From the IMG/VR virus record IMGVR_UViG_2627854066_000007: 51,816 nucleotides of DNA, one strand, 5' to 3'. Below, piece by piece: positions 1,090 through 48,533 of this stretch. How positions within the stretch are numbered: the first letter of the stretch is position 1; each line of letters starts with the position of its first letter. The notes under the pieces are model-generated. The model worked only from the letters and a program-made list of their open reading frames with translations. It ran no database searches and was not told where the DNA came from. Origin of the DNA: a virus. Taxonomy: Duplodnaviria > Heunggongvirae > Uroviricota > Caudoviricetes. The translations under genes were made by a program, and so were the position numbers.

Positions 1090-1126
1090 GTAAGCGTACA
1101 GCGAGGGCCGTATTGACGGGGATGTG

Positions 1127-2665
1127 TTATTCAGCTGGCAGTGCTATGCGCCACGGAAGCAGTTCGCTGACCCGGTTGACCGGCCAGTCTGCTATGACGC
1201 CAAGCACATGGCGAAGGTAGCTTTCTGGATCCACGTCATTCAGTTTGCACGTCCCTATCAGGCTGTACAGTAGCGCTCCCCGCTCACCACCATGGCCAGA
1301 GCCGAAGAACAGGAAGTTTTTACGACCCAGACTTACCGCCCGCAGGGCATTTTCAGCGATGTTGTTGTCGATTTCCACCCAGCCATCGTTCGCATAGTAC
1401 GTCAGTGCCGGCCACTGGTTAAGTGCGTACGCGAACGCCTTCGCCAACTCTGAGTGTCGCGACAGGGTCTTCATCTTTTCACGCAACCAGCTTTCCAGGG
1501 ATTTCAACAGCGGTTTCGTTTTTCGCTGACGTTCAGCAAGCCGCTGCTCTGCCGGCATTCCCCTTATATCCGCCTCTATGGCGTACAACTGACCGATCTG
1601 CTCCAGGGCTTCTTCCGTCAGTGCTGACGGGATGCGGACGTGCACATCGTGGATCTTTCGGCGGGCATGAGCCCAGCAGGCAGCTTCCGTTATCCCACCA
1701 TTGCGATACAGCTCGTTGAACCCGGCGTACGCATCCGCTTGCAGCACACCGCTGAAGCAAGCAAGATGAGTCTGCGGATGGATGCCTTTTCTGTCCGGGC
1801 TGTAAGCGAACCACACTGCAGGTGCCAACGCTGACCCGGCATTGCGGTCATCACGAACATACGCCCACAACCGCCCGGTCTTCGTCTTCTTATTACCCGG
1901 CATCAGTACCTGGACCGGGGTATCATCGGCATGGAGTTTGCCGTCAGTCATGACATAGCCATGAAGCGCCTCTTCCAGCGGAGACAGCAGCCGGCAGCAT
2001 GCATCCACCCAGCCCGACAGCAGTGAACGGCTCAGCTCCACACCTTGCCGGCCGTATATTTCTGACTGGCGATACAGCGGGGTGTGCTCTGCATACTTCG
2101 AGGTCAGCACGCGGGCCAGCAGCCCCGGTCCGGCGATACCCCGCTCGATGGGCCGCGAAGGTGCAGGTGCCTGCACGATGGCATCGCACTGAGTACAGGC
2201 ATGTTTTTCCCGTACCGTCCGGATAACCCGGAAGGCGCTACGCATCAACTCCAGCTGTTCGGCGGTATCCTCGCCCAGATAGCTCAGTGAACCGCCGCAG
2301 TTCGGGCAGCACGGCGCCGCAGGCAACAGTCGCTTTTCGTCACGGGGTAGTGATTCAGGGAACGGCTTACGGATGCGGGTCTGACGCAACGGACGCTGTA
2401 CTGCCGGGTCATACACCCTACCAGTCAGCGTATCGCTCTCTTTCTGAAGCTGGTTCAGATCGGCTTCCATTTGTGCGATACGGCGGGAGACTTTTTCGGA
2501 ACGACTGCCGAAGTTCATCCGGCGGAGTTTATCCAGCTGCGCCTGCAGATGGTCTATTTCGCGCTCCCGGTTGCTCAGCTTTTCCTGCAGGGCGTGGATC
2601 AGCGCTTCCTGTTCGGCCAGGCGCTGTTTCAGCAGGAAGATGTCGTCAGAAGAGATGTCGTTCAT
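1127..2665 (-). CDS. tnpC: IS66-family transposase TnpC
   Basis: 512-aa ORF with N-terminal leucine-zipper-like coiled coil, CxxC zinc motifs and DDE-type core; a paralog is at 37170-38708. Confidence 0.9.
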
Positions 2666-2714
2666 AAGCCCGTATTTTACCGGGCTTATTCTGTGACAAC
2701 CAGGATAAAGAGAT

Positions 2715-3062
2715 TTACAGCATGGTCAGGGAGGTCAGCAGCCGCTTAGGCTGTCGCCAGTCGATACCTTCCAGCAGCATCGCCAGCTGCGCCTGTGTAA
2801 GGAACACTTTGCCATCACGGGCTGACGGCCAGGCGAAGCGCCCACGCTCCAGCCGTTTGGTCAGGAGGCACAGTCCGTCACCGGTGGACCACAGCAGTTT
2901 AACCTGACTGCCGCTGCGGCCCCGGAAAATGAAAACATGGCCGGACATGGGATCGTCTTTCAGCGCCGTCTGTACTTTCGCAGCCAGGCCGTTGAAGCCA
3001 TTTCTCATATCGGTGATACCGGCAACCAGCCAAATTTTGGTCCCGGAAGGTAAAGGGATCAT
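2715..3062 (-). CDS. tnpB: IS66-family accessory protein TnpB (Orf2)
   Basis: 115-aa ORF directly upstream of tnpC, overlapping tnpA stop by 4 nt; near-identical paralog at 38757-39104. Confidence 0.85.
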
Positions 3063-3460
3063 CGCTTCAGTTCCTGTATCAGCAGAGTCAGGAGCTTTTC
3101 GCTGACATTGCCATTGAAGCGGAGCGTCCCGTGCCGGAACGTTACCTCACAGCTGATACTGAGGGTTTCCGGGTCCTCTGCGAGCGATTCTGGCTGTTCG
3201 GCAGCTGCATCGAGAGTCACAGGAAGTAGCTGGGGGCTCTCTGAAGAAGGTAATAGCAGCTTTCCCTCGCGCCATTGTTGTCGCCATTTGAACAACAGAT
3301 TGGCGTTAATGCCATTTTCAAGAGCAAGTTTTGAGATGGATATCCCGGGTTCACAGGAGGCAGCAACGAGCTGCTGTTTAAATTCGGGAGGATAATTAGG
3401 GCAGCCTTTTCGCCTGCCGGGAGTCACATTTTTCTGCATATCTGACACTTTGGTTCCCAC
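3059..3460 (-). CDS. tnpA: IS66-family accessory protein TnpA (Orf1, HTH)
   Basis: 133-aa ORF, first gene of the IS66 three-gene operon; paralog at 39101-39505. Confidence 0.8.
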   Translation of the reverse strand: MGTKVSDMQKNVTPGRRKGCPNYPPEFKQQLVAASCEPGISISKLALENGINANLLFKWRQQWREGKLLLPSSESPQLLPVTLDAAAEQPESLAEDPETLSISCEVTFRHGTLRFNGNVSEKLLTLLIQELKR

Positions 3461-3657: not shown

Positions 3658-4953
3658 TTAATTTTTCATTGCTTCGTTATGGGGCATGGTTGGGGCAAAC
3701 TCGCTTAACTGTGTATTTAACAAAGCTACCTGTGCATTATTGTTTTCAGACATCCATTTTCCGTATACCTGAAATACCATTTGCGCATCTGCATGGCCCA
3801 TCTGGTTTGCTATAAATGCCGGGTTAGCACCAGCTGTCAGCGACCAGCAGGCATAAGTATGTCTCGACTGATATGATTTTCGATGGCGGAGTCCGGCACG
3901 TTTTATCGCTGCGTCCCACATCTGCCTTATTGAGTCAACGGTAAAATGGTCACCATAATTTTTTACTCTCGCTGACACTTCAGGTTGAAAAACAAAGGTG
4001 CATTTTTGTTTTTCTGTTCTGCCATACTCTCTGAGGTGAACATCAATGATATGCTCTTTGCTCAGTCTCGTTAATGTCATCTGACTCCGGAGAGCGTCGA
4101 TTGCTGGCTTAATAAGATGAATGACCCGATTGGTTCCCGCCTGTGTTTTTGGTACCGTGAAACGGTCTTTTGCTAAATTTCTCCTGATCATCATTGTTCC
4201 ATTTTTCAGATCTATGTCCTCCCATCCAAGTGCACACAGCTCACCAGGGCGAACGCCAGTATAAACAGAAACACACCATAAATTTTTTGCTTGCTGATTT
4301 CTGCACGCATCGATAAGACGGATAAATTCCTCCCGCGAAAGAGGATCCGGAATGGTTCTTGATTCCTTTAATGGCGAGATCCCCTTAAACGGATTATCTG
4401 GCAGGTAACCGTTATCAACACCAAACTGGAACACGGCGTTAAGATTTGTCATGTAATTATTTACAGTTACAGCCGATCTCCCTGGTTGTGTAACAATATA
4501 GTTACTTTTGGGGATCTGGTATCCAGTCAGTAGCTCTTTACGAACCTCCAGTAATTTTTCTTTATTAATCGATGAGGCAAGATTTTTTTCACCGATTATG
4601 CTCAGGATATTTTTGATGACGGCACGGTATGTGTTGAGTGATGTTTTGGCGACTTCAGTTTCTTTCAGTGCCAGAAATTTTTCAGCCAGTTCTTTTATGG
4701 TTAAATCTTGTCGGGCCTCACCAAATTTTTCCAGATTGCGTGAGGAGGGAAACTGTTTTGCATAGTCGAAAACACCAGTTTTTATTGCGTAACAAACAGA
4801 GGAGCGTAGTTCACCTGCAACGCGCCTGTTTTTTGCTGTGTCAGGAACCCCCAGATTTTCCCTGACTCTTACGCCTTTATAAACAAACCAGATACGTAAT
4901 TTCCCTCCATGGTTTTCCACGCCTGTCGGATATTTCATTTCAACTTCTCTCAT
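3658..4953 (-). CDS. int: Phage integrase (tyrosine recombinase)
   Basis: 431-aa ORF adjacent to attL; C-terminal catalytic region with RxxR...HxxRH...Y-type motifs (RSQMTLTR, HTYACW, QMGHADAQMVFQVYGKW); true start may be the internal Met at residue 6. Confidence 0.9.
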   Translation of the reverse strand: MREVEMKYPTGVENHGGKLRIWFVYKGVRVRENLGVPDTAKNRRVAGELRSSVCYAIKTGVFDYAKQFPSSRNLEKFGEARQDLTIKELAEKFLALKETEVAKTSLNTYRAVIKNILSIIGEKNLASSINKEKLLEVRKELLTGYQIPKSNYIVTQPGRSAVTVNNYMTNLNAVFQFGVDNGYLPDNPFKGISPLKESRTIPDPLSREEFIRLIDACRNQQAKNLWCVSVYTGVRPGELCALGWEDIDLKNGTMMIRRNLAKDRFTVPKTQAGTNRVIHLIKPAIDALRSQMTLTRLSKEHIIDVHLREYGRTEKQKCTFVFQPEVSARVKNYGDHFTVDSIRQMWDAAIKRAGLRHRKSYQSRHTYACWSLTAGANPAFIANQMGHADAQMVFQVYGKWMSENNNAQVALLNTQLSEFAPTMPHNEAMKN

Positions 4954-4972
4954 TAGTTAGTGTGGCTTTTAG

Positions 4973-5224
4973 TCAAGTAAGATGACGTCTTGGTCTCGCT
5001 GATGCCTGGCGCTCAATCCAGCGATCAATTTCTTCCAGGTTGTAAAAGCATGGACTGTTATCCCATGGCATACTGTCATGAGCGACATGCTTATATTCCC
5101 TTCCTTCCATAAACGATTTTTCCCGGGCCTTTTTTAACGTACCTTTTTTTATTCCTTTCAGCGCAATTAACTGCTCTTCGGATACCCATTTGCCGGGAGA
5201 GACAATCATGATTACTTCGCTCAT
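4973..5224 (-). CDS. xis: Excisionase-like small protein
   Basis: 83-aa basic ORF immediately upstream of int on the same strand; assignment is by position and size. Confidence 0.55.
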   Translation of the reverse strand: MSEVIMIVSPGKWVSEEQLIALKGIKKGTLKKAREKSFMEGREYKHVAHDSMPWDNSPCFYNLEEIDRWIERQASARPRRHLT

Positions 5225-5296: not shown

Positions 5297-7768
5297 TTAA
5301 GAATCAGCCTGACTCGGGATCAGTTTTTGCCAGATAACTGAAACGTATTTTGCCTGGTAACGGGCGTCATCAAGTGCATTATGGCGCTCACCTTCGAATG
5401 GAATAGCCGTTCTGGCATCGAAGTCTATGGCTTTCCCCAGCTCAACGATTGTGCGTACATCGCGATCGTTGTAGTAACGCCACGGGCAGGGGATCCCCTG
5501 CCGTTCGTATGAACGGCGCAAAATCGTGTTGTCGAAGTTGGCTCCATTTCCCCAAACCTGAACAAAAAATTCACTGGAGTTTTCGTCGATAAATTCCCGC
5601 AATTGTAACAGTGCATCATCTAACGGGATTTCATCGGTCATAATGGCAGATTGCGCTTCGCGTGATTGCTTAAGCCACCATTTAATGGTGTCCCGATCAA
5701 TGACTCCGCCAGCAGTTTCCAGATCGATAGTCTTACTAAATTCCGGTCCCATATCTCCGGTTTGCGGATCGAAAAATATTGCACCTATTGAGATGATCGG
5801 GGCATCAGGATTTTTTCCCATGGTTTCAAGGTCGATCATTAGATGGTCACACGTCCTGCTGGTGGATGTGATTTCGTGATGACCGTTCACCTTAATTGAG
5901 TGATCTGCCGTCTCGCCAGTTTCATTATCGCTATTGTGATGCTGATTGCCGCCAGTGTTCTCCTTGTGTGGATGTTCAGCGCCTTCCATTTCCTCCGGAT
6001 CATCTTCCTGAACTTCAACCTGATACTCTTCATCGAATGTTTCTTGGTATGTTGCGTCGCCCATCACCGCGCCACAATCAGGGCAGTTGCCGCCGCCGGT
6101 CTGACCGCAGGCGGTGCAGACTTTTTCCACTTCCTGTTGCGCCACTGGTTCAGGCTGTTTCGTTTCTGGCTCGTTTTGTAACGCATTTGTGCTGTTTTGT
6201 TCCGCTTTTTGGTAGTTCCGTTCCGATTCATGCTGGTTCTGGTTCACAGAATCGCGGGTCTGGATCCCCTTAACCCATTTCGGATCATTCGGGTCACTAA
6301 TCCCTTCAACAAATTCACCACGTGATGCAGCAAGCAACTTATCGGCGTCAGGCTGGCTGATATTGGCTGCCTGCATAATTTTGTTTACTTCGTCAGCGGT
6401 AACTTTTATCGGCTCTGGTTGTTCTGAATCTTCAGCGGTATCTACATTTTGCGGTAAGCCCGTGTATGTGCCATTTTTTCGGGCAAAATATTCTTCTTTT
6501 GTGATTTCAGTGGCGCCAGCAGCCAGTGCCTTATCCAGACCAGAAAGTTTGTTTGCGCGACCGTATTTTTCTCCGTCCTTATCTGCGAAGAGGAAATAGA
6601 ACGGCCCCTCACGCTCTACAGATGGTTCAGCTTCCGGCGCGGTTTCATTTTTTGGGATATCAGATACCTCAGTTTCCACTGCATCAGTTTGTGTTTCTGA
6701 TGACTGGAGAACATCAACAGTGCCCAGGTCTGTTTCTTCATTCTCAAACACGCCCTTTGTCGTCAGGTATTCGCAGATATATTTGTTCAGTGCTATGGGA
6801 TCTTTGTGAATGTCGATCGGACGCTCACGGACAAGGCCAAAAATAGTCTGGCGGTCGTAGCGAAGGGCATCAGGCTGTTTGCGCATTGATGCCGAGATAC
6901 GCTTCCAGTCTTCGCGGTCGTTGTCGATAACTTCTTTTTTTGCCCAGCGATGGATGCTGCCGTCAATGTTTCCGGCATCCACATCACCAGGCCAGAGAGC
7001 GTAGGCCAGTTCGTCATCCAGTGTTTTCCATGTCTGCTTGTATTCGCGATGAATGGCAGCAATGACCGGGCTGATTTTTCCTGTTGAATTTTCAGTGTAC
7101 TGTTGATTGGCTCTGGCGCGGGCGAGATCAACAACAGACGTGTATTTTCCGGTTTCCTTGCGTTCACCTTCGCGACGTTTTTTCCAGATGCGCATCTCTG
7201 CCTGAATTTCGGGCCATTTAGCACCAGGAATACATTTATGCTTAACCCACCCAATGGCGTGCAACTTAAGCTCCGGATACATGGCGTTAACTTCTGGCAT
7301 TTTCATCAACGCTTCAACGATATGTCCGTCGAATGTTGCCATGTCTTCCTGCAACAATTCCTGTGCGCTAATAACCATATCAACGGTGATGTTTTCACAT
7401 GTGTCGAACTTAACCATGACAGCGTTCTGTACTTCAGGGGCCAGCTTGTCAAAAGTGACGTTCATCGGATCGGATTCAGTCTCAACCGGGACAAAAGAAG
7501 CAGACTCCTCATCCCAGCGGTTTTCCTGCATATATTCAGCATCCCATGAATCGAGGGCAGGGCGGGGTATGCCAGGTTTATCCTCGCAGACAATAAATTT
7601 ATAAGCGCAGTCCTGAGCAGCCGGATAATGTTCCAGGAACTGCCAGTGAAATTTTGCTCGAGCACGGCGTTCGTCGCCAGCTTCAATGGCTGTGGCTACA
7701 GCCACAGCGCCTTCTTCCCTTGTTGCCAGTTCGTCAGGAATAGCGGCGCAAATAAAGACTTTACTCAT
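5297..7768 (-). CDS. Phage exonuclease with C-terminal DEDDh-type 3'-5' exonuclease domain
   Basis: 823-aa ORF; C-terminal ~200 aa carry DLET, NGANFD and HNALDDA motifs consistent with the DnaQ-like DEDDh fold; a long acidic low-complexity linker precedes the domain. Confidence 0.75.
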   Translation of the reverse strand: MSKVFICAAIPDELATREEGAVAVATAIEAGDERRARAKFHWQFLEHYPAAQDCAYKFIVCEDKPGIPRPALDSWDAEYMQENRWDEESASFVPVETESDPMNVTFDKLAPEVQNAVMVKFDTCENITVDMVISAQELLQEDMATFDGHIVEALMKMPEVNAMYPELKLHAIGWVKHKCIPGAKWPEIQAEMRIWKKRREGERKETGKYTSVVDLARARANQQYTENSTGKISPVIAAIHREYKQTWKTLDDELAYALWPGDVDAGNIDGSIHRWAKKEVIDNDREDWKRISASMRKQPDALRYDRQTIFGLVRERPIDIHKDPIALNKYICEYLTTKGVFENEETDLGTVDVLQSSETQTDAVETEVSDIPKNETAPEAEPSVEREGPFYFLFADKDGEKYGRANKLSGLDKALAAGATEITKEEYFARKNGTYTGLPQNVDTAEDSEQPEPIKVTADEVNKIMQAANISQPDADKLLAASRGEFVEGISDPNDPKWVKGIQTRDSVNQNQHESERNYQKAEQNSTNALQNEPETKQPEPVAQQEVEKVCTACGQTGGGNCPDCGAVMGDATYQETFDEEYQVEVQEDDPEEMEGAEHPHKENTGGNQHHNSDNETGETADHSIKVNGHHEITSTSRTCDHLMIDLETMGKNPDAPIISIGAIFFDPQTGDMGPEFSKTIDLETAGGVIDRDTIKWWLKQSREAQSAIMTDEIPLDDALLQLREFIDENSSEFFVQVWGNGANFDNTILRRSYERQGIPCPWRYYNDRDVRTIVELGKAIDFDARTAIPFEGERHNALDDARYQAKYVSVIWQKLIPSQADS

Positions 7769-7861
7769 TTTGTTTTAACCTCATGACAGATTTAAGGATG
7801 AACAAATCCCTGCCATTGCTGGCATATAAGAATGAAACCGGATATTTATTACGGAACTGTT

Positions 7862-8053
7862 TTAAAGACCTGCCGGGATTTCGATATTATCCTGGTGAAT
7901 AACTTTATCGACCGGGTAACAGTTACCGGGAATTTTCTGTTCGGTTGCTGCTGTCATACACTCCTGCATTGTCCTGTGAACACTGACTGCAATATCAACT
8001 GGCTCTCCGGAAACAAGAAAAACTGTCAGAACAAGCGCAAATGCTGAATTCAT
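7862..8053 (-). CDS. ydfD: YdfD-like small membrane/lysis protein
   Basis: 63-aa ORF from an internal Met (MNSAFALVLTVFLVSGEPV...) with an N-terminal hydrophobic segment; overlaps dicB stop. Confidence 0.55.
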   Translation of the reverse strand: MNSAFALVLTVFLVSGEPVDIAVSVHRTMQECMTAATEQKIPGNCYPVDKVIHQDNIEIPAGL

Positions 8054-8238
8054 TGTGCACATCCTTTTGGCATCAGACGTAAACGAGCCAGCATTGAAAC
8101 AATGCATATTTTATTTAATAGCTCCCGTTCTTGTTTTCTCTTGTTAATGGCATCTTCAGTAAATACAGGGTTACTGATAGTGACACCAATTTCAAAACAA
8201 CCTTCAGACGTATTAACGTTTGGTAATAACGTTTTCAT
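8050..8238 (-). CDS. dicB: Cell division inhibitor DicB
   Basis: 62-aa ORF MKTLLPNVNTSEGCFEIGVTISNPVFTEDAINKRKQERELLNKICIVSMLARLRLMPKGCAQ, matching DicB as I recall it, ~175 nt downstream of dicF. Confidence 0.7.
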   Translation of the reverse strand: MKTLLPNVNTSEGCFEIGVTISNPVFTEDAINKRKQERELLNKICIVSMLARLRLMPKGCAQ

Positions 8239-8411
8239 TATCGCGTCCTCAACAATGAATTTTGTGATGCAATGCCTGGTGCCTCCAGGTGACGTTAACC
8301 AGTTAACAATTAACGCCGGATACAGAGAATCCACCCATAACACTGTTTTTGGTTTTAACTGTTCCGCGTGCGCTTAGCCGCATTCACCGCATCACAAAAT
8401 TCACTTTAAAA

Positions 8412-8466
8412 ACGGCGGCAGAGCAGTCACGGAGTAAAACTGATACCGCCAAACGTCACCAGAAAA
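8412..8466 (-). ncRNA. dicF: DicF small regulatory RNA (ftsZ-targeting)
   Basis: Reverse complement reads TTTTCTGGTGACGTTTGGCGGTATCAGTTTTACTCCGTGACTGCTCTGCCGCCG followed by a T-run, matching the DicF sequence as I recall it and ending in its terminator hairpin. Confidence 0.75.
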
Positions 8467-8740
8467 TTGATAACAGAGGGCGTTGCAGCGGGGTTGTCAC
8501 TTAAGCGTATGGTCAACCTGACAACTCGGTGTCCTCAACGGGGAAGGAATAACCCTGCCATACTTACCGCCGCGCCATTTCGCGGGTTGCCACAACCGGA
8601 AGCGCACGGTCGAATTAAATTTAACGACACCGTACAGTGAGACGAACTTCGCCGTGCGCTTTCGTGTTGTGTGCCTGCTTTTAACCACGTCAGGCGAGGT
8701 GGTATCCTTCTTATTCCGAATAACCAAGAAGGAAATCTAT

Positions 8741-8941
8741 ATGACTAAAGAAGAATTTGTCTCTTATATTTTTGATAAAACGGTTGAAATGTATGCCGCT
8801 ACTTACGGGTCCTGTAATCCTCTGAATAAACCAGAGGGGAAAGATGATTTCGACAAAATTTACCGCTTCTTGGAGGACCGCTATATCAAAAGGTTAGAGG
8901 ACGCAGGGATCAAATCCCCAGTGAAGTCACCATTGTCCTGA
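8741..8941 (+). CDS. Hypothetical 66-aa protein, antisense to the dicF precursor region
   Basis: ATG preceded by AAGGAAAT Shine-Dalgarno at good spacing; hydrophilic product MTKEEFVSYIFDKTVEMYAATYGS...; overlaps the 3' end of the minus-strand ydfB/C-like gene by 32 nt. Confidence 0.3.
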   Translation: MTKEEFVSYIFDKTVEMYAATYGSCNPLNKPEGKDDFDKIYRFLEDRYIKRLEDAGIKSPVKSPLS

Positions 8942-9287
8942 GAACTTGCAGGACGTCATGATCGTAACTTCCATCCAAACCGCGACGGCAAATTGCTTCT
9001 CGTATTACCGGAAGCAGTTCGCTGGAAATCTCGGTGCATATTTCACCTGATAATACGCCTGGCTCAAGTGAGAATATTGGTGAACTTACGGTCTTGGTCT
9101 CGACAGTTTCAGAGTCAGTGCCAACATTATAAAGCTCAACGAAAGCGGTCTTGATTTTCCGGGCCAGATCTTTTGCTGGCTCGCTTGCAATATCTTTCCC
9201 GATTTCTCGCAGCACAGAATGCAATGTATGAGCTGCTGTTTTCTGTACATCAGACGGTAAATCTTTAAATTCCATCGTCAGCCTCAT
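8910..9287 (-). CDS. YdfB/YdfC-like protein of the dicB operon (single 125-aa ORF here)
   Basis: Start codon overlaps ydfA stop (TGATG); occupies the ydfB-ydfC position of K-12 Qin, with ~445 nt spacing to dicF. Confidence 0.5.
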   Translation of the reverse strand: MRLTMEFKDLPSDVQKTAAHTLHSVLREIGKDIASEPAKDLARKIKTAFVELYNVGTDSETVETKTVSSPIFSLEPGVLSGEICTEISSELLPVIREAICRRGLDGSYDHDVLQVLRTMVTSLGI

Positions 9288-9439
9288 CAGTCAGTGTTTC
9301 TGGCTAACCAGCAACGCGCGCCAGATTCGGTTTTAAACGTTTTGCTTTTGGTATATGTCATCGCGGTGAACGTACCGTCCTGGTTGGGGAACACGCCACA
9401 TACCAGAGATTCGCTGTTGCCAAGATCGATAGTATCCAT
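9287..9439 (-). CDS. ydfA: YdfA-like small protein (DUF1391-type)
   Basis: 50-aa ORF from internal Met MDTIDLGNSESLVCGVFPNQDGTFTAMTYTKSKTFKTESGARCWLARNTD; first gene downstream of the dicA-side promoter region. Confidence 0.6.
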   Translation of the reverse strand: MDTIDLGNSESLVCGVFPNQDGTFTAMTYTKSKTFKTESGARCWLARNTD

Positions 9440-9552
9440 GCTGACCTCATTTCCCCTTAACGCCGGGGTCGCGGAACTGTTTGCTGAGAACACCGTGCGG
9501 TGTCTTGATGGAAAGTAATTTAGAATAACCTAACATGAGAGGCAAGTGTTTT

Positions 9553-9572
9553 TTGTTAGATTGATCTAACAA
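9553..9572. promoter_or_regulatory. Inverted repeat TTGTTAGAT-NN-ATCTAACAA, candidate DicA/DicC operator
   Basis: 9-bp arms with 2-bp centre, seen directly; the half-site TTAGA/TCTAA recurs in the dicA-dicC intergenic region. Confidence 0.35.
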
Positions 9573-9607
9573 AAAGAGTGGGCGCAACTAATCACTTGAA
9601 AAGAATG

Positions 9608-10015
9608 TTATTTTATTGATTTATTTTTACGCGCTTTAAGCATTTCTTCGAAGAGTTTGTTGAAGTTTTCTACTCTTGCGCGCATTTCAGACAGCAAGGC
9701 TTCCTGCTCGGAAGATGGAAGAGCATCGAATAATTCGATCAATTCTTTGTGGTTGGGAGTTAGCTCTGTTTCCACATGAAGTTCTTGTGCAGGCACTGGT
9801 GCCTTGTCTTCGTCACCAAACATTAGCCATGTAGGTGAGCACTTCAGAGCATCCGCTAAAGCAAACAATCGTTTTCCGACTGGCTGGGTTTCGTCTCTTT
9901 CCCATTGTGAAATTGTGACGTGAGCAACTCCAGCGAGGCGCGCAGCTTCTCGTTGTGTTAAGCGTAATTCTTTTCGTCGCGCCAGAACTCGCTGGCCTAG
10001 GGTTCTTGTATCCAT
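9608..10015 (-). CDS. dicA: HTH-XRE repressor DicA (CI-like immunity repressor)
   Basis: 135-aa ORF with N-terminal helix-turn-helix (LTQREAARLAGVAHVTISQWERDE), divergent from the Cro-like dicC. Confidence 0.9.
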   Translation of the reverse strand: MDTRTLGQRVLARRKELRLTQREAARLAGVAHVTISQWERDETQPVGKRLFALADALKCSPTWLMFGDEDKAPVPAQELHVETELTPNHKELIELFDALPSSEQEALLSEMRARVENFNKLFEEMLKARKNKSIK

Positions 10016-10092
10016 AGTTAGGTAATTCTAATTTTTCTTGACTTAGGTATCCCGCGCACAATAATGTTAGAAAAGTCTAACAAGAGGGGGCT
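10016..10092. promoter_or_regulatory. Divergent dicA/dicC promoter-operator region
   Basis: 77-bp intergenic region between divergent repressor genes, containing TTAGGTAATTCTAA and GTTAGAAAAGTCTAAC inverted repeats. Confidence 0.5.
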
Positions 10093-10323
10093 TTGATGCT
10101 TAAAGTTGACGCAATTACTTTTTTTGGCAGCAAAACAAAGCTTGCCAATGCCGCAGGAGTGAGACTGGCAAGTGTTGCTGCTTGGGGGATACTGGTTCCT
10201 GAAGGTCGCGCGATGCGTCTACAGGAGGCATCTGGCGGGGAGCTTCAGTATGATCCCAAAGTTTATGACGAATATCGTAAGACGAAGCGGGCGGGGCGGT
10301 TGAACAATGAAAATCACTCCTGA
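10093..10323 (+). CDS. dicC: Cro-like regulator DicC
   Basis: 76-aa ORF transcribed divergently from dicA, matching DicC in size and position. Confidence 0.85.
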   Translation: MMLKVDAITFFGSKTKLANAAGVRLASVAAWGILVPEGRAMRLQEASGGELQYDPKVYDEYRKTKRAGRLNNENHS

Positions 10324-10828
10324 ACAGGCTCGTGAGGCTCTGGATGCCTGGATATGTCGACCAGGAATGACACAGGAGCAGGCGACGATATTAATCACTG
10401 AAGCATTCTGGGCTTTGAAAGAGCGCCCGAACATCGATGTTCAGCGTGTCACATATGAAGGTGGCGCGGTTGATCAGCGAGCGCTTAGCGTTAATCGAGT
10501 GAAGATATTCGAACGCTGGAAGGCTATCGACACCAGGGATAAGCGTGAAAAGTTCACAGCGCTAGTGCCTGCAATTATGGAGGCTATCCGGATTAGTGAT
10601 TTCAGGTTGTATCGTGAGATCAGTGATGGAAAAAGTATTACGTACATGATCGCCGGGTTAAATAAAGAATATGGCGATGTGGTGGAATCCGGACTGCTTT
10701 TTGCAGATCCTGCCGTTGTAGATCGTGAAACTGACGAACTTATAGAAAAAGCAATTGCTTTCAAGCTTGCGTATCGACAGCAATACCAACAAAAAGCTGG
10801 ATGGAATTATGAGTCTTCTTTTTGCTGA
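10307..10828 (+). CDS. Hypothetical phage early protein (173 aa)
   Basis: ORF directly downstream of dicC with good codon usage, overlapping the next gene; no family recognised from sequence. Confidence 0.6.
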   Translation: MKITPEQAREALDAWICRPGMTQEQATILITEAFWALKERPNIDVQRVTYEGGAVDQRALSVNRVKIFERWKAIDTRDKREKFTALVPAIMEAIRISDFRLYREISDGKSITYMIAGLNKEYGDVVESGLLFADPAVVDRETDELIEKAIAFKLAYRQQYQQKAGWNYESSFC

Positions 10829-14298: not shown

Positions 14299-14509
14299 TT
14301 TCATATTGGCGAGGTAAAGGTAGTTAAGTAGAATGGCTGCGGGTGCTTGAGGCTATCTGCCTCGGGCATGAACACCAAAGGCAGATAGAGAAAAGCCCCA
14401 GTTAACATTACGCGTCCTGCAAGACGCTTAACATTAATCTGAGGCCAATTTCATGCTAGACACATGTAGGTTAGCCTCTTACGTGCCGGAAGGCAAGGAG
14501 AAGCAGGCT

Positions 14510-14665
14510 ATGAAGCAGCAAAAGGCGATGTTAATCGCCCTGATCGTCATCTGTTTAACCGTCATAGTGACGGCACTGGTAACGAGGAAAGACCTCTGCG
14601 AGGTACGAATCCGAACCGGCCAGACGGAGGTCGCTGTCTTCACAGCTTACGAACCTGAGGAGTAA
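14510..14665 (+). CDS. hok: Hok-family type I toxin
   Basis: 51-aa ORF MKQQKAMLIALIVICLTVIVTALVTRKDLCEVRIRTGQTEVAVFTAYEPEE, a canonical Hok/Gef sequence; in-frame upstream extension from 14453; structured leader upstream. Confidence 0.85.
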   Translation: MKQQKAMLIALIVICLTVIVTALVTRKDLCEVRIRTGQTEVAVFTAYEPEE

Positions 14666-14881: not shown

Positions 14882-15133
14882 ATGATGAACATCGAAGAAC
14901 TGCGTAAAATTTTTTGTGAAGATGGCCTCTATGCTGTGTGCGTTGAAAATGGAAATCTTGTTAGTCATTACCGCATTATGTGTTTGCGAAAGAATGGGGC
15001 TGCGTTAATTAATTTTGTGGATGGTCGAGTGACAGACGGATTTATCTTGCGCGAAGGTGAGTTTGTCACTTCATTACAGGCACTGAAAGAGATCGGAATA
15101 AAAGCAGGCTTTTCAGCTTTTGCAGAAGAATAA
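14882..15133 (+). CDS. Rem-like small phage protein
   Basis: 83-aa ORF in the position and size of rem in K-12 Qin (between hok and ydfU); name by synteny only. Confidence 0.45.
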   Translation: MMNIEELRKIFCEDGLYAVCVENGNLVSHYRIMCLRKNGAALINFVDGRVTDGFILREGEFVTSLQALKEIGIKAGFSAFAEE

Positions 15134-17662: not shown

Positions 17663-17970
17663 TAGGGGACAGAAAAACTCCTTAATACTGATAACCTGGT
17701 GCACCATACACACGTTCCTGGAGAAAACTACTTTTTTGATAGGGTTGAAGGTGGCTGGATGTCTAAAATAAACATTGCTTCATATGTTCAACTATGAGTT
17801 AATGACTGCGTCGGTTTGAAGAACAGACGATATACGAAGTAGTTTACTAAAGCAGTTCTCATTTCAGGTGTTATTCACTTATTCCTTCTTTGAGTCTCTC
17901 CAATTAAGTACGAAGTCGTTTCTGTTATGCAAACCATTTATGCCGAAAGGCTCAAGTTAAGGAATGTAGA

Positions 17971-18186
17971 ATGTCAAATAAAATGACTGGTTTAGTAAAA
18001 TGGTTTAACGCTGATAAAGGTTTCGGCTTTATTTCTCCTGTTGATGGTAGTAAAGATGTGTTTGTGCATTTTTCTGCGATTCAGAATGATAATTATCGAA
18101 CCTTATTTGAAGGTCAAAAGGTTACCTTCTCTATAGAGAGTGGTGCTAAAGGTCCTGCAGCAGTAAATGTCATCATTACTGATTAA
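17971..18186 (+). CDS. cspB: Cold-shock protein CspB-like
   Basis: 71-aa [41 protein letters not shown]... with RNP1/RNP2 cold-shock-domain motifs; long AT-rich 5' leader. Confidence 0.85.
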
Positions 18187-18467
18187 AATTCATCGCTCGT
18201 CTGTATACGATAACGAAGAAGGCTGATGCCTGAGTAGAGATACGGACAGAGTAGTGAATATTGGATCTCTTTAATAAAAAGTAAGGAGGTCCAATACATG
18301 AAACAATGGCCAGCATATTTGGCAAAATCTTAATCAGGAAAAGTATGCTAACCATTGTGGTGAAGTGCAGGTTTGCTGCATGAATAGTTTTACAGCAGAA
18401 GCTAACTGCTGGCATGGCAAAACAAAGTGCGTAAGTGGATGACTCCCACAAAAAGCACCACAATCTC

Positions 18468-20495: not shown

Positions 20496-20859
20496 GGTAA
20501 TATTAAATCGGAACATTTACATCGCGGAATGTAAAATTTAAATAAAAAGGACTCTTCCATGAGCCAAAATTCCTGAAATCTTAAGGGTAAGATAAAAGGT
20601 CTTAATCAGAATGACACGTTTTATTAATAAATAAAGCTATTCTTTCATTGCTGTGTTTTTCTTTACAAAAGTAATCCTTGCTATGGGTGGTTAATCATGC
20701 GTTAATGGTGTTCTGGTTTGTTACAAATTTATCTGAAGCAGTCATTTTTATAATTTTATTATTTGTACCTCTTGAGATTTCCTTGTTGGTTTTTCTCTCT
20801 GATATTTTTTTTTTCGGACCATTCTGCCCAAGGGCTAATTTCTTCAAAAGGTAATAATT

Positions 20860-21072
20860 ATGTCTAACAAAATGACTGGTTTAGTGAAATGGTTTAACCC
20901 TGAAAAAGGTTTTGGTTTCATCACGCCGAAAGATGGCAGCAAAGATGTGTTTGTCCATTTCTCAGCAATTCAGAGCAACGATTTCAAAACATTAACTGAG
21001 AATCAGGAAGTTGAATTTGGTATTGAGAACGGACCTAAAGGTCCTGCCGCTGTTCATGTAGTGGCGCTTTGA
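20860..21072 (+). CDS. cspI: Cold-shock protein CspI-like
   Basis: 70-aa [41 protein letters not shown]...; long AT-rich leader upstream. Confidence 0.85.
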
Positions 21073-21343
21073 GGTAGACAATATTACAAACCATATTCAC
21101 TTTAGATGCCCGTGTTGTCATGGTTCCCAGTATAGAACATCATCTTTTGATGTTTCTGACATGAATCCTTTCGGGGCAAAATGTATCTTTTGTAAATCAA
21201 TGATGATTACATTTGATAATATTTCACAATACTTAAATGCCAGCCGTCTGTCGTTGGATTTAAAAAAGTGAAAATGAAGGCTCCTTCGGGAGCTTTTTTG
21301 CTTGGTGTCTATTCGATGGATACTCACATACTACGGTAACATC

Positions 21344-37169: not shown

Positions 37170-38708
37170 TTATTCAGTCGGCAGTGCTACGCGCCAGGGG
37201 AGCAGTTCGCCGACCCGGTTTATCGGCCAGTCGGCTATGACGTCAAGGACATAGCGGAGGTAGCTTTCTGGCTCCACTCCGTTCAGTTTGCACGTCCCGA
37301 TCAGGCTGTACAGCAGCGCTCCCCGCTCTCCTCCATGATCCGAACCGAAGAACAGGTAGTTTTTGCGGCCCAGACTGACCATCCGCAACGCATTTTCAGC
37401 GATGTTATTGTCCGCCTCAGCCCAGCCATCATCTGCATAGTACGTCAGCGCCGGCCACTGGTTCAGGGCGTATGCGAACGCTTTCGCCAGTTCTGAGTGT
37501 CGCGACAGGGTTTTCATCTTTTCACGCAGCCAGCTTTCCAGGGATTTCAGCAGCGGTTTCGTTTTCAACTGACGTTCGGCAAGGCGCTGCTCCGCCGTCA
37601 TTCCCCTTATCTCTGCCTCGATGGCGTACAGTTCGCCGATCCGTTTCAGCGCTTCCTCCGTCAGGGCTGACGGGGTGCGAACGTGCACATCGTGGATTTT
37701 ACGGCGGGCGTGAGCCCAACAGGCGGCTTCCGTTATCCGGCCATCCCGGTACAGCTCGTTGAACCCGGCGTATGCATCCGCCTGCAGTACACCACTGAAC
37801 CCCGCAAGATGGGTCTGCGGATGGATGCCTTTTCTGTCCGGGCTGTAAGCGAACCACACCGCCGGCGCCAGCGTTGACCCGGCGTTACGGTCGTCACGAA
37901 CGTAGGTCCATAACCGCCCGGTCTTCGTTTTCTTATTGCCTGGCAACAGCACCGGGACAGGCGTGTCATCAGCATGGAGCTTACCGTCAGTCAGCACATA
38001 GTCCTGAAGCGCTTCTTCCAGCGGTGACAGTAGCCGGCAGCATGCATCCACCCAGCCCGACAGCAGTGAACGACTCAGCTCCACGCCCTGGCGGCCGTAC
38101 ATTTCAGACTGGCGGTACAGCGGGGTGTGCTCTGCATACTTTGAGATCAGCACGCGGGCCAGCAGCCCCGGTCCTGCGATACCCCGCTCGATGGGCCGTG
38201 AAGGCGCGGGGGCCTGCACGATGGCATCGCACTGAGTACAGGCATGCTTTTCACGTACAGTCCGGATAACCCGGAAGGCGCTGCGCATCAGCTCCAGCTG
38301 TTCGGCGGCATCCTCACCCAGATAGCTCAGCGAGCCTCCACATTCCGGGCAGCATGACGCTGCCGGCAGCAGCCGTTTTTCATCGCGGGGGAGTGATTCG
38401 GGGAACGGTTTGCGGGTGCGGGTTTGACGCAGCGGGCGCTGCACGGCCGGGTCGTCAACCCGACCGGTAAGGGTATCACTTTCTTTCTGAAGTGCCTTCA
38501 GGTCAGCTTCCATCTGTGCGATACGACGGGAGACTTTTTCCGAGCGGCTGCCGAAGTTCATCCGGCGCAGCTTATCCAGCTGTGCCTGCAGATGGTCTAT
38601 TTCGCGTTCACGCTCGTTCAGCTTTTCCTGCAGGGCACGGTTCAGCGCCTCCTGTTCGGCAAGGAGACGTTTCAGTGCATTGATATCGTCAGGAAGTGAG
38701 CTGCTCAT
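37170..38708 (-). CDS. tnpC: IS66-family transposase TnpC (copy 2)
   Basis: 512-aa ORF, paralog of 1127-2665 with scattered substitutions. Confidence 0.9.
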
Positions 38709-38756
38709 ACCGGGTATATTACCAGGCTCATTCAGCGTCGACCAGGATAAAGAGGC

Positions 38757-39104
38757 TTACAACATAGTCAGGGACGTAAGCAGTCTTTTAGGCTGCCGCC
38801 AGTCGATACCTTCCAGCAGCATCGCCAGCTGTGCCGGTGTGAGGAACACTTTGCCATCCCGGGCTGACGGCCAGGCGAAGCGGCCGCGCTCCAGCCGTTT
38901 GGTCAGCAGACACAGTCCATCGCCGGTAGACCAGAGGAGCTTTACCTGACTGCCATTACGCCCACGGAAGATAAAAACGTGACCTGACATCGGATCGTCT
39001 TTCAGCGTCGTCTGCACCTTTGCCGCCAGGCCGTTGAAGCCGTTTCTCATATCGGTGATGCCAGCGACCAGCCAGATCTTTGTCCCTGATGGTAATGGGA
39101 TCAA
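38757..39104 (-). CDS. tnpB: IS66-family TnpB (copy 2)
   Basis: 115-aa ORF, near-identical to 2715-3062. Confidence 0.85.
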   Translation of the reverse strand: MIPLPSGTKIWLVAGITDMRNGFNGLAAKVQTTLKDDPMSGHVFIFRGRNGSQVKLLWSTGDGLCLLTKRLERGRFAWPSARDGKVFLTPAQLAMLLEGIDWRQPKRLLTSLTML

Positions 39105-39505
39105 CGTTTGAGCTCCCGTATCAGCAGGTTCAGGATATTTTCACTGATGGCACCATTCAGACGGAGTGATCCGTGCCGGAACGTCACTTCACAGCTGATA
39201 TTGAGTGATTCAGGTGTCGCAGTAGCTACAGGTTGTGACCGGGGGGAGGTTGTAGGGACAACATCTTCGGCATCAAGTGTTATCGGGAGCAGCTCAGGCA
39301 CGTTGTTTTCTGTTGTTGAAGGAGGACGTAGTTTTCCTTCGCGCCAGTACTGGCGCCACTTGAACAGCAAATTATCGTTGATCCCATGCTCACGAGCGAG
39401 TTGCGCTACGGAGATCTCTGGTCGATGCGAGAGTTCAACCATTTTGATTTTGAACTCAACGGGATAATTAGGGCTTTTTTTACGCACTGCGGTTAATGAT
39501 TTCAT
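39101..39505 (-). CDS. tnpA: IS66-family TnpA (copy 2)
   Basis: 134-aa ORF; N-terminus differs from copy 1. Confidence 0.8.
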   Translation of the reverse strand: MKSLTAVRKKSPNYPVEFKIKMVELSHRPEISVAQLAREHGINDNLLFKWRQYWREGKLRPPSTTENNVPELLPITLDAEDVVPTTSPRSQPVATATPESLNISCEVTFRHGSLRLNGAISENILNLLIRELKR

Positions 39506-47931: not shown

Positions 47932-48533
47932 TGGCATTCAGAATGAGTGAACAACCACGGACCATAAAAATTTATAATCTGCTGGCCGGAACTAATGAAT
48001 TTATTGGTGAAGGTGACGCATATATTCCGCCTCATACCGGTCTGCCAGCAAACAGTACCGATATTGCACCGCCAGATATTCCGGCTGGCTTTGTGGCTGT
48101 TTTCAACAGTGATGAGGCATCGTGGCATCTCGTTGAAGATCATCGGGGAAAAACCGTCTATGACGTGGCTTCCGGCGACGCGTTATTTATTTCTGAACTT
48201 GGCTCGTTACCGGAAAATGTCACCTGGTTATCCCCGGAAGGGGAATATCAGAAGTGGAACGGCACAGCCTGGGTGAAGGATACGGAAGCAGAAAAACTGT
48301 TCCGGATCCGGGAGGCGGAAGAAACAAAAAACAGCCTGATGCAGGTAGCCAGTGAGCATATTGCGCCGCTTCAGGATGCTGTGGATCTGGAGATCGCAAC
48401 GGAGGAAGAAACCTTGTTGCTGGAAGCCTGGAAAAAGTATCGGGTGTTGCTGAACCGTGTTGATACATCAACTGCACCGGATATTGAATGGCCAGCCCTA
48501 CCGTATGGTAAGATATATAAATTCTATAATTAG
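47931..48533 (+). CDS. Tail fiber assembly protein (Tfa)
   Basis: 200-aa ORF starting at the stf stop (TAATG overlap), Tfa-like size and position. Confidence 0.85.

Follow-up and report, generated by a model that had tools for sequence, protein, structure and literature searches.

The dicBF operon of the Escherichia coli K-12 Qin prophage carries ydfB and ydfC between ydfA and the gene of the small RNA DicF. In the prophage described here, the same interval holds a 125-aa open reading frame (ORF), and the question raised by this locus is what that ORF is and what it means for the operon around it. An earlier note had taken it for an unsplit ydfB/ydfC gene, with one of the two forms decayed. 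The analysis argues for a different answer. The locus is very probably the dicBF early-left operon of a Qin-type lambdoid prophage that occupies the Qin site of K-12, and in which the ydfB-ydfC slot has been filled by two unrelated genes, orf121 and orf66, through ordinary lambdoid modular recombination.

The window is the whole 51,816-nt stretch of the viral record IMGVR_UViG_2627854066_000007, and its features are collected in Table 1. The identity and intactness of the parts, the breakpoints and the coding selection on both cassette genes were computed here. Transcription, processing, targets and regulation are carried over by inference from work on K-12, and the mechanistic statements are drawn from PMC5069750, PMC5861419, PMC6832061 and PMC10448788.

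Table 1. Features of the dicBF operon, its cassette and the neighbouring genes in the window.
Feature	Positions	Strand	Description
Exonuclease gene	5297..7768	-	823 aa, intact; the K-12 position holds only the ydfE pseudogene, overlapped by IS2E
ydfD (DUF1482 lysis protein)	7862..8053	-	63 aa; 62/63 identical to K-12 (98%)
dicB	8050..8238	-	62 aa; 62/62 identical to K-12 DicB (100%)
DicF sRNA	8413..8465	-	53 nt; Rfam RF00039 covariance model and K-12 alignment
DicF precursor	8413..8602	-	190 nt; 187/190 identical to K-12
Mobile cassette (orf121, orf66 and ~80 nt upstream of orf66)	8654..9275	.	common to other enterobacterial prophages; replaces K-12 ydfB-ydfC
orf66, hypothetical protein	8741..8941	+	66 aa; phrog_34441, WP_000159335.1
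orf121/125, hypothetical protein	8910..9287 (125 aa) or 8910..9275 (121 aa)	-	phrog_33007, WP_001320327.1
ydfA (DUF1391)	9287..9439	-	opens the operon; 50 aa, 88% identity to K-12 YdfA
Candidate dicBp (PL-like) promoter	9517..9570	-	-35 TTGCCT 9545-9540; -10 TAAATT 9522-9517
dicA-like HTH_3 repressor gene	9608..10015	-	135 aa; 57% identical to K-12 DicA
Two candidate DicA-type operator palindromes (GTTAG-N6-CTAAC)	10017-10032, 10066-10081	.	in the spacer separating the repressor gene from the cro-like gene
dicC/cro-like regulator (Cro/CI family)	10096..10323	+	ORF and PGAP annotation of an identical record; divergent from the repressor gene
rem antirepressor gene	14882..15133	+	PGAP name, ORF

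The prophage and its DicF-dicB region

Comparison with K-12 identifies the window as a Qin-type lambdoid prophage, inserted where Qin sits in K-12, on the rspB side. The int, xis, exonuclease, rem, hokD/sok and rspB genes are positioned as in Qin, and many sequenced E. coli genomes match positions 7800-10100 at 100% identity. In K-12 MG1655 the order is dicA-dicC, ydfA-ydfB-ydfC-dicF-dicB-ydfD-ydfE, and the two prophages are alike in chromosomal site, gene order, orientation, dicF-dicB spacing, operator half-sites and rem. They differ in that ydfB and ydfC are absent here, their place being taken by the unrelated orf121 together with the convergent orf66, and in that the downstream exonuclease, xis and int genes are intact here and pseudogenes in K-12. 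The repressor has also diverged from DicA (Table 1), and DicF has a G rather than a C at position 53.

The DicF/dicB part is a known, ordinary prophage operon, and DicF, DicB and YdfD are textbook products. The RF00039 covariance model scores DicF at 72.5 bits (gathering score 48; E 3.9e-14) over model positions 1-52 of 52, and 52 of its 53 nucleotides are identical to K-12 dicF. The earlier note had placed DicF and its 3' terminator at 8412-8466; both the identity and the terminator hold, with the exact bounds one nucleotide further in on each side. The terminator consists of an outer stem of seven pairs (GGCGGUA/UGCCGCC), then G, then UUUUU, with a minimum free energy of -16.6 kcal/mol. The sole change, C53G, lies between the terminator stem and the U-run, at a base left unpaired by the Rfam consensus, and should be neutral; 890 E. 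coli records share the G53 allele. The pairing regions are conserved, as the earlier note had supposed, in that nucleotides 1-52 equal those of K-12 dicF and cover its 5' region (xylR/pykA), its 3' region (ftsZ) and the manX site; these assignments follow PMC5069750 and are made at the level of regions.

DicF lies in a long untranslated stretch upstream of dicB, and its precursor is conserved. In K-12, the 5' end of the 190-nt species is generated by RNase III (PMC10448788). The 53-nt and 190-nt species, Hfq binding and ftsZ repression are known for K-12 only (PMC10448788, PMC5069750). The spacing from dicF to dicB is 174 nt both here and in K-12, so that dicB and ydfD do follow at K-12-like spacing, as had been claimed, and the ydfD start overlaps the dicB stop (ATGA). 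The family matches are full-length for both YdfD (PF07358, E 2.1e-26) and DicB (PF05358, E 1.9e-40; NF049927, 132.8 bits against a cutoff of 100). At the head of the operon, ydfA and its leader align with K-12 and are conserved, with a PF07151 match at E 4e-27; the distance from ydfA to dicF is 821 nt here and 718 nt in K-12. The biology that the earlier note set out is found in the literature: DicF and DicB inhibit cell division, DicF regulates manX, and DicB protects against phages via inner-membrane receptor proteins (PMC5069750, PMC5861419, PMC6832061).

Control of the operon and the antisense gene

The region upstream of ydfA has the layout of a lambdoid immunity switch, with an HTH repressor, a divergent Cro-like gene, and operators in both the repressor-cro and the PL-like spacers. 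The repressor matches K-12 DicA by BLASTP (E 1e-54) and PF01381 (E 1.5e-14). Four GTTAG-N6-CTAAC sites occur in the window, where 0.77 are expected, and all of them lie within the immunity region; the same half-sites are found at the equivalent K-12 places. The candidate dicBp was placed by position-for-position alignment with the K-12 dicA-ydfA spacer, and it is overlapped by two of the operators (9519-9534 and 9555-9570). Its hexamers are weaker than consensus, with only 8 of 12 consensus positions matched, and it was not called by a promoter scan of 7700-10400.

In the lysogen, the DicA-like repressor would bind these operators over the PL-like promoter and keep the operon off. Once repression is lifted, whether by the prophage's own Rem antirepressor, by spontaneous switching or by stress, a polycistronic transcript would run through ydfA, orf121, the antisense of orf66, dicF, dicB and ydfD. 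RNase III and RNase E would then excise DicF from the long untranslated stretch, its 3' end being set by its own intrinsic terminator. Together with Hfq, DicF would repress ftsZ with its 3' region, xylR and pykA with its 5' region, and manX as well. DicB would block division via MinC and FtsZ and lower phage entry via the inner-membrane receptor proteins, and YdfD would serve as a lysis protein. Rem derepresses dicBp in K-12 (PMC10448788), but its control of this operon is an extrapolation, since the repressor here shares little more than half of its residues with K-12 DicA.

Unlike in K-12, a gene on the opposite strand, orf66, stands in the path of this polycistronic transcript. It converges on orf121, the two 3' ends overlapping by 32 nt, and runs antisense to the dicBF transcript; convergent transcription from it could lower DicF and DicB output. 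A stronger form of this idea is that the operon is structurally intact and functionally silenced, with orf66 transcription or a diverged promoter or repressor preventing DicF and DicB from being made and the genes carried as passengers. In K-12, the only known route of DicF synthesis is the transcript from dicBp, without an internal promoter (PMC10448788), and orf66 is antisense to exactly this route; the weak hexamers of the candidate promoter point the same way. Silencing is nevertheless improbable. Identity to K-12 stays at 97-100% for DicF, its precursor, DicB and YdfD, 406 genomes preserve the arrangement at no less than 99% identity, phage mEp460 has it too, and the scan of 7700-10400 found no terminator-like site on the operon strand between ydfA and dicF.

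The same scan found no consensus promoter for orf66. A possible extended -10 element, TGGTATCCT (8700-8708, + strand), lies upstream of the gene, and there is a hairpin at 8706-8732; both were picked out by eye only and are not claimed as functional.

The cassette in the ydfB-ydfC slot

K-12 DNA homology is 96.6% over 7800-8682 and 78% over 9296-9726, and blastn found none across 8683-9295. The homology thus ends at the ydfA stop codon and picks up again ~217 nt upstream of DicF. Homology to the loci L005, L006 and L007 begins exactly at 9275 and ends at 8654-8666. The segment from ydfA to the DicF precursor would accordingly be read as a mosaic slot, exchanged at gene boundaries.

The earlier note had described a single 125-aa ORF upstream of the dicF precursor and translationally coupled to ydfA. 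The ORF is there, its first ATG, at 9287, overlapping the stop codon of ydfA by one base (TGATG). Translation more likely begins at the second ATG (9275), in view of its GAGG Shine-Dalgarno sequence, the choice made by PGAP and the full-length match to the PHROG profile. The gene nearest the DicF precursor is orf66, which the earlier note had missed.

The predicted Orf121 protein has two helical domains, a conserved N-terminal one (residues 1-52) and a C-terminal one, joined by a variable linker. Its dN/dS is about 0.2-0.35 in most comparisons of the N- and C-terminal domains, which indicates purifying selection, and about 0.4-1.2, near neutral, in the linker. For orf66, dN/dS values of 0.05-0.37 likewise indicate purifying selection. 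Orf66 is predicted with confidence as a helical hairpin (pLDDT 81.5), and a Foldseek search of the model against the PDB and BFVD returned nothing below E 0.8, which is unsurprising for so simple a fold.

Two functional candidates for Orf121 were set aside. Its position suggested an antiterminator of the lambda N type, for which an arginine-rich N-terminus is the criterion, and the N-terminus is not arginine-rich. Residues 10-40 resemble archaeal histones (NCBIfam E 0.047, 14 bits against a cutoff of 50; PDB 1a7w, E 0.055), a resemblance taken as noise.

It is very improbable that orf121 and orf66 are not genes at all, in which case the interval would only lengthen the untranslated leader of the DicF precursor and the ORFs would be due to chance or to annotation. 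Sequence searches of Pfam, NCBIfam, PADLOC and the PDB gave nothing significant for either ORF, with no defence or toxin-antitoxin family match, the database names are all 'hypothetical protein', and the AlphaFold model of Orf121 is poor (pLDDT 59.5). Against this, both ORF lengths are kept across Escherichia, Salmonella, Enterobacter, Cedecea and others (down to 54% identity for orf66 and 75% for orf121), and the low dN/dS values of orf66 and of the two orf121 domains are those of coding sequences. Both ORFs also match full-length PHROG profiles and have good Shine-Dalgarno sequences (AAGGAA before 8741 for orf66), and the hairpin model of Orf66 argues in the same direction.

Next to no credence is left for the 125-aa ORF as an ancestral unsplit ydfB+ydfC, or a fusion of the intact K-12 pair, with one form decayed: although it occupies the same operon position, directly after ydfA and before the DicF precursor, and its 125 aa roughly equal 42 + 72 aa, the segment has no DNA homology to K-12, BLASTP (word size 2, up to E<=100) matched neither YdfB nor YdfC, hhalign run on a profile of 13 sequences gave probabilities of 0.2% against YdfC and 0.1% against YdfB, the PHROG families differ (phrog_33007 against phrog_2061 for YdfB and phrog_1744 for YdfC), thousands of genomes have ydfB and ydfC as two intact genes, and orf121, itself under purifying selection, has homologues of its own in prophages without ydfA or dicB. 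The earlier note had itself held that an alignment without relation to ydfB/ydfC would count against its reading, and the K-12 alignments show no relation. Since the ORF is unrelated to these genes, nothing about decay of the K-12 genes follows from it.

The preferred reading, replacement by modular recombination, agrees with how the two segments are distributed. The cassette is present in 408 of 5426 E. coli genomes and the K-12 ydfB-ydfC segment in 3813 of 5426, and the two are intact, widespread alternatives. The same cassette also follows the repressor gene in Enterobacter and Salmonella prophages without dicB.

A more tentative suggestion, and on balance an unlikely one, is that orf121 and orf66 belong together as one self-contained mobile unit and are not passengers. 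Wherever it occurs, the unit comes right after the repressor gene and opens a lambdoid early-left operon, and the convergent 3' overlap persists even at 57% protein identity. Because it reads against that operon, orf66 could be the gene expressed in the lysogen, perhaps as an exclusion or conversion factor; alternatively, read-through into DicF and DicB might be gated by convergent transcription and by the complementarity of the 3' ends. If such gating were true, it would add a layer of control over the toxic DicF and DicB products that is absent from K-12. The pairing is not obligate, as the Cedecea loci L010 and L011 have orf66 alone.

Relatives and two versions of the dicBF operon

Phage mEp460 (LR597641.1) has the same order, ydfA - orf121 - orf66 - dicF - dicB - ydfD, with 98.4% identity over 75% of a 2.3-kb query, and differs from this prophage in the immunity region. 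The Qin-like prophage of E. coli BL21 has the same arrangement, with identical proteins WP_001320327.1, WP_000159335.1, WP_000381212.1 and WP_000379591.1, but its downstream exonuclease and integrase genes are decayed, unlike those here. In the feature itself, neither relative differs from this prophage.

The cassette also resembles the mosaic slots and morons of lambdoid phages. Its edges lie at gene boundaries (the ydfA stop and the orf121 ATG), and the same cassette follows unrelated repressor genes in other genera. Many morons are expressed in the lysogen and read against the early operon, and orf66 reads in this direction too. In general, morons are without the tight convergent 3' overlap with a partner gene that orf66 has with orf121.

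The exact sequence is already present in hundreds of public genomes, in a sequenced phage and in BL21. There are at least two common versions of the dicBF operon, which differ in the mosaic slot, and in the second an antisense gene lies across the only transcript known to produce DicF.

The dicBF operon

Reading of the minus strand of 7400-10200 and listing of its ORFs gave the gene order shown in the table, with a long stretch of minus strand without a gene between a 125-aa ORF and dicB. An Rfam scan of the entire window at the gathering threshold identified DicF at 8413-8464 (minus strand) with 72.5 bits (threshold 48), with the model covered end to end; the sRNA reported in the earlier note is thus real and far above chance.

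Features of the window by position
Feature	Position	Strand	Source
IS66-family element	~1100-3440		record coordinates
Excisionase and integrase region	3800-5200	-
Exonuclease gene, 823 aa	5297-7768	-	ORF listing
ydfD	7862-8053	-	ORF listing
dicB	8050-8238	-	ORF listing
DicF	8413-8465	-	K-12 comparison
Inverted repeat CCTTCTT...AAGAAGG	8706-8732		by eye
orf66	8741-8941	+	PGAP
125-aa ORF	8910-9287	-	ORF listing
ydfA	9287-9439	-	ORF listing
HTH repressor gene	9608-10015	-	ORF listing
RelA/SpoT-domain gene, 341 aa	12750-13775	+
sok antitoxin RNA	14341-14515	+	Rfam
rem	14882-15133	+	identical record's annotation, ORF
cspA-type thermoregulator leader	17810-18233	+	Rfam
cspA-type thermoregulator leader	20712-21099	+	Rfam
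IS66-family element	~37170-39500		record coordinates
IS009 match	48274-48472		Rfam

DicF is identical to that of K-12 (MG1655, prophage Qin) at 52 of 53 positions. The sole change is the last base, G here and C in K-12, which is unpaired in the Rfam consensus and separates the terminator stem from the U-run. Folding of the hairpin is as expected (-16.6 kcal/mol), and the 190-nt precursor, whose 5' end is the RNase III product in K-12 (PMC10448788), is 187/190 identical. DicF pairs through its 5' region with xylR and pykA and through its 3' region with ftsZ (PMC5069750), and there is also a manX site (PMC5861419). Because nucleotides 1-52 are unchanged, all of these pairing sites are preserved, including the ftsZ and manX regions that had been proposed for checking.

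Compared with the annotated Qin region of MG1655, DicB is identical (62/62), YdfD nearly so (62/63), and YdfA is 88% identical; each is recognised by the model for its own family (PF05358, NF049927, PF07358, PF07151). In both, dicF and dicB are 174 nt apart, in keeping with the proposed K-12-like arrangement. Phage protection by DicB through inner-membrane receptor proteins, which was also put forward, has been published (PMC6832061). What was observed for DicF and dicB is correct and already known: public records annotate the sequence, Rfam has a DicF family, and strains have been described as varying in the genes that flank dicF (PMC5069750).

The ydfB/ydfC slot

The interpretive claim that lifted the finding above routine, that the 125-aa ORF is an unsplit ydfB/ydfC, is wrong. 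By blastn, identity to K-12 is 96.6% over 7800-8682 and 78% over 9296-9726, with no homology between 8682 and 9296; it ends at the ydfA stop codon and restarts ~217 nt upstream of DicF. BLASTP (word size 2, E<=100) aligned neither the 125-aa product nor its 121-aa version to YdfB or YdfC. In hhalign, a profile of the protein built from 13 sequences had probabilities of 0.2% against YdfC and 0.1% against YdfB, and the PHROG families differ (phrog_33007 for the ORF, phrog_2061 for YdfB, phrog_1744 for YdfC). Together, these comparisons rule out the unsplit gene. The suggestion that one of the two versions is a decayed form also fails, as neither is a wreck. Among 5426 complete E. coli genomes, 3813 have the K-12 segment, with ydfB and ydfC separately annotated, and 408 have the window's segment, 406 of these at >=99% identity. 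BL21 has the window's segment with identical proteins.

PGAP places two genes in this slot, the 121-aa orf121, which starts at the second ATG of the ORF (9275), and the 66-aa orf66, convergent with it with a 32-nt overlap. The earlier note overlooked orf66, which is on the opposite strand. The 9275 start has a GAGG Shine-Dalgarno, and the PHROG profile covers residues 1-121 of 121. Both families are small, exclusively enterobacterial and composed of hypothetical proteins. orf121 and orf66 are both real genes. Homologues as distant as 75% identity (orf121) and 54% (orf66) retain the ORF length. The dN/dS of orf66 is 0.05-0.37, and that of the orf121 N- and C-terminal domains is ~0.2-0.35 in most comparisons, with ~0.4-1.2 in the linker (residues 53-84). 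For orf121, AlphaFold predicts two helical hairpins with a disordered linker between them (pLDDT 59.5); its orf66 model is a helical hairpin, predicted with confidence (pLDDT 81.5). Searches of Pfam, NCBIfam, PADLOC, PDB and by fold gave no informative match to a function. The inverted repeat lies immediately 5' of the orf66 start codon; its 3' arm holds the orf66 Shine-Dalgarno, and it is kept in a Salmonella prophage locus (L007).

The prophage and the working of the operon

The 2.3 kb at 7800-10100 is 100% identical in many complete E. coli genomes, mostly from avian and human isolates, and phage mEp460 matches 75% of its length at 98.4% identity. An identical record is annotated as a Qin-type lambdoid prophage adjoining rspB, on the same side as K-12 Qin. 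Downstream of ydfD, this prophage has intact genes for integrase, excisionase and exonuclease, whereas the corresponding stretch of K-12 holds only the ydfE and intQ pseudogenes with IS2E (insD7 pseudogene) between them. Since these genes are intact, the prophage is a less decayed Qin relative at the same site.

Other elements accompany the operon. Two IS66-family elements are present; ISEc22 sits at the tail assembly/C40 peptidase gene, an insertion that probably cripples the prophage, and ISEc8 is flanked by the integrase gene and rspB. An Rfam IS009 match is found elsewhere. The RelA/SpoT-domain gene, between the replication genes and hokD, gives a full-length match (E 5e-119) to PDC-S33, a candidate defence model of PADLOC, and may serve in prophage defence as a gene of the toxSAS/CapRel type. 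The sok RNA adjoins hokD, and the cspA-type leaders (cspB, cspI paralogues) lie in the late region; all score above their Rfam gathering scores.

The window's repressor shares only 57% identity with DicA. Four GTTAG-N6-CTAAC palindromes, where 0.77 would be expected over the whole window, fall exactly within the two regulatory spacers, and the K-12 half-sites are the same at equivalent positions. We infer a PL-like promoter upstream of ydfA; the candidate aligns with the K-12 spacer, is weak (8/12 consensus positions) and was not called by the promoter scan. The Rem antirepressor derepresses the corresponding K-12 promoter, dicBp (PMC10448788).

As all K-12-defined elements are present and nearly identical, the K-12 mechanism is taken as the best explanation for this operon. 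A DicA-like repressor would shut it off at operators that overlap the promoter, and derepression would occur via Rem, spontaneous switching or stress. A polycistronic transcript would begin upstream of ydfA, with DicF released through RNase III and RNase E cleavage together with intrinsic termination. DicF with Hfq would repress ftsZ, xylR, pykA and manX, while DicB would block division and phage entry and YdfD would lyse the cell. One structural difference from K-12 could matter: the transcript here must cross the antisense orf66. We think that DicF would still be made, because a scan found no terminator-like site on the operon strand from ydfA to dicF and the arrangement is conserved in hundreds of genomes and a phage.

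The gene pair in other prophages

orf121 and orf66 move together as a unit. In the prophages L005 (Enterobacter), L006, and L007 and L008 (Salmonella), which have no dicB, the pair comes directly after unrelated repressor genes, and the two genes again overlap by 32 nt. DNA homology of related loci to the window begins exactly at the orf121 ATG (9275) and stops at 8654-8666. At locus L009, an orf66 homologue with 57% identity is likewise convergent with a gene, whose product shares only its C-terminal ~40 residues with orf121. The 3' overlap of orf66 with the partner's C-terminal domain, 56 nt in L009, is maintained even at 36-57% protein identity. In Cedecea, orf66 occurs alone, still antisense to its neighbours, and the N-terminal 52 residues of orf121 reappear in other PHROGs and in proteins with different C-termini.

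In L007 (Salmonella enterica Braenderup), a diverged DicF-like element (4760-4830, aligned to window 8405-8475) occupies the same place after the same cassette, followed by kilR-ydaE in place of dicB. This locus retains the upstream precursor, the terminator stem and the U-run. In the 5' single-stranded region, 6 nt are deleted and there are substitutions; the loop differs, and the score is under the Rfam gathering score. The element may be a paralogue of DicF whose seed differs. At L006 (1771-1959) and L010 (Cedecea; 759-846), C4 antisense RNA and isrK-type RNAs adjoin an Ash/pRha-type gene, P1/P7/P4-like immunity elements in otherwise lambdoid contexts.

What stays mildly interesting is the convergent pair of genes in the ydfB/ydfC slot, which is conserved and uncharacterised.
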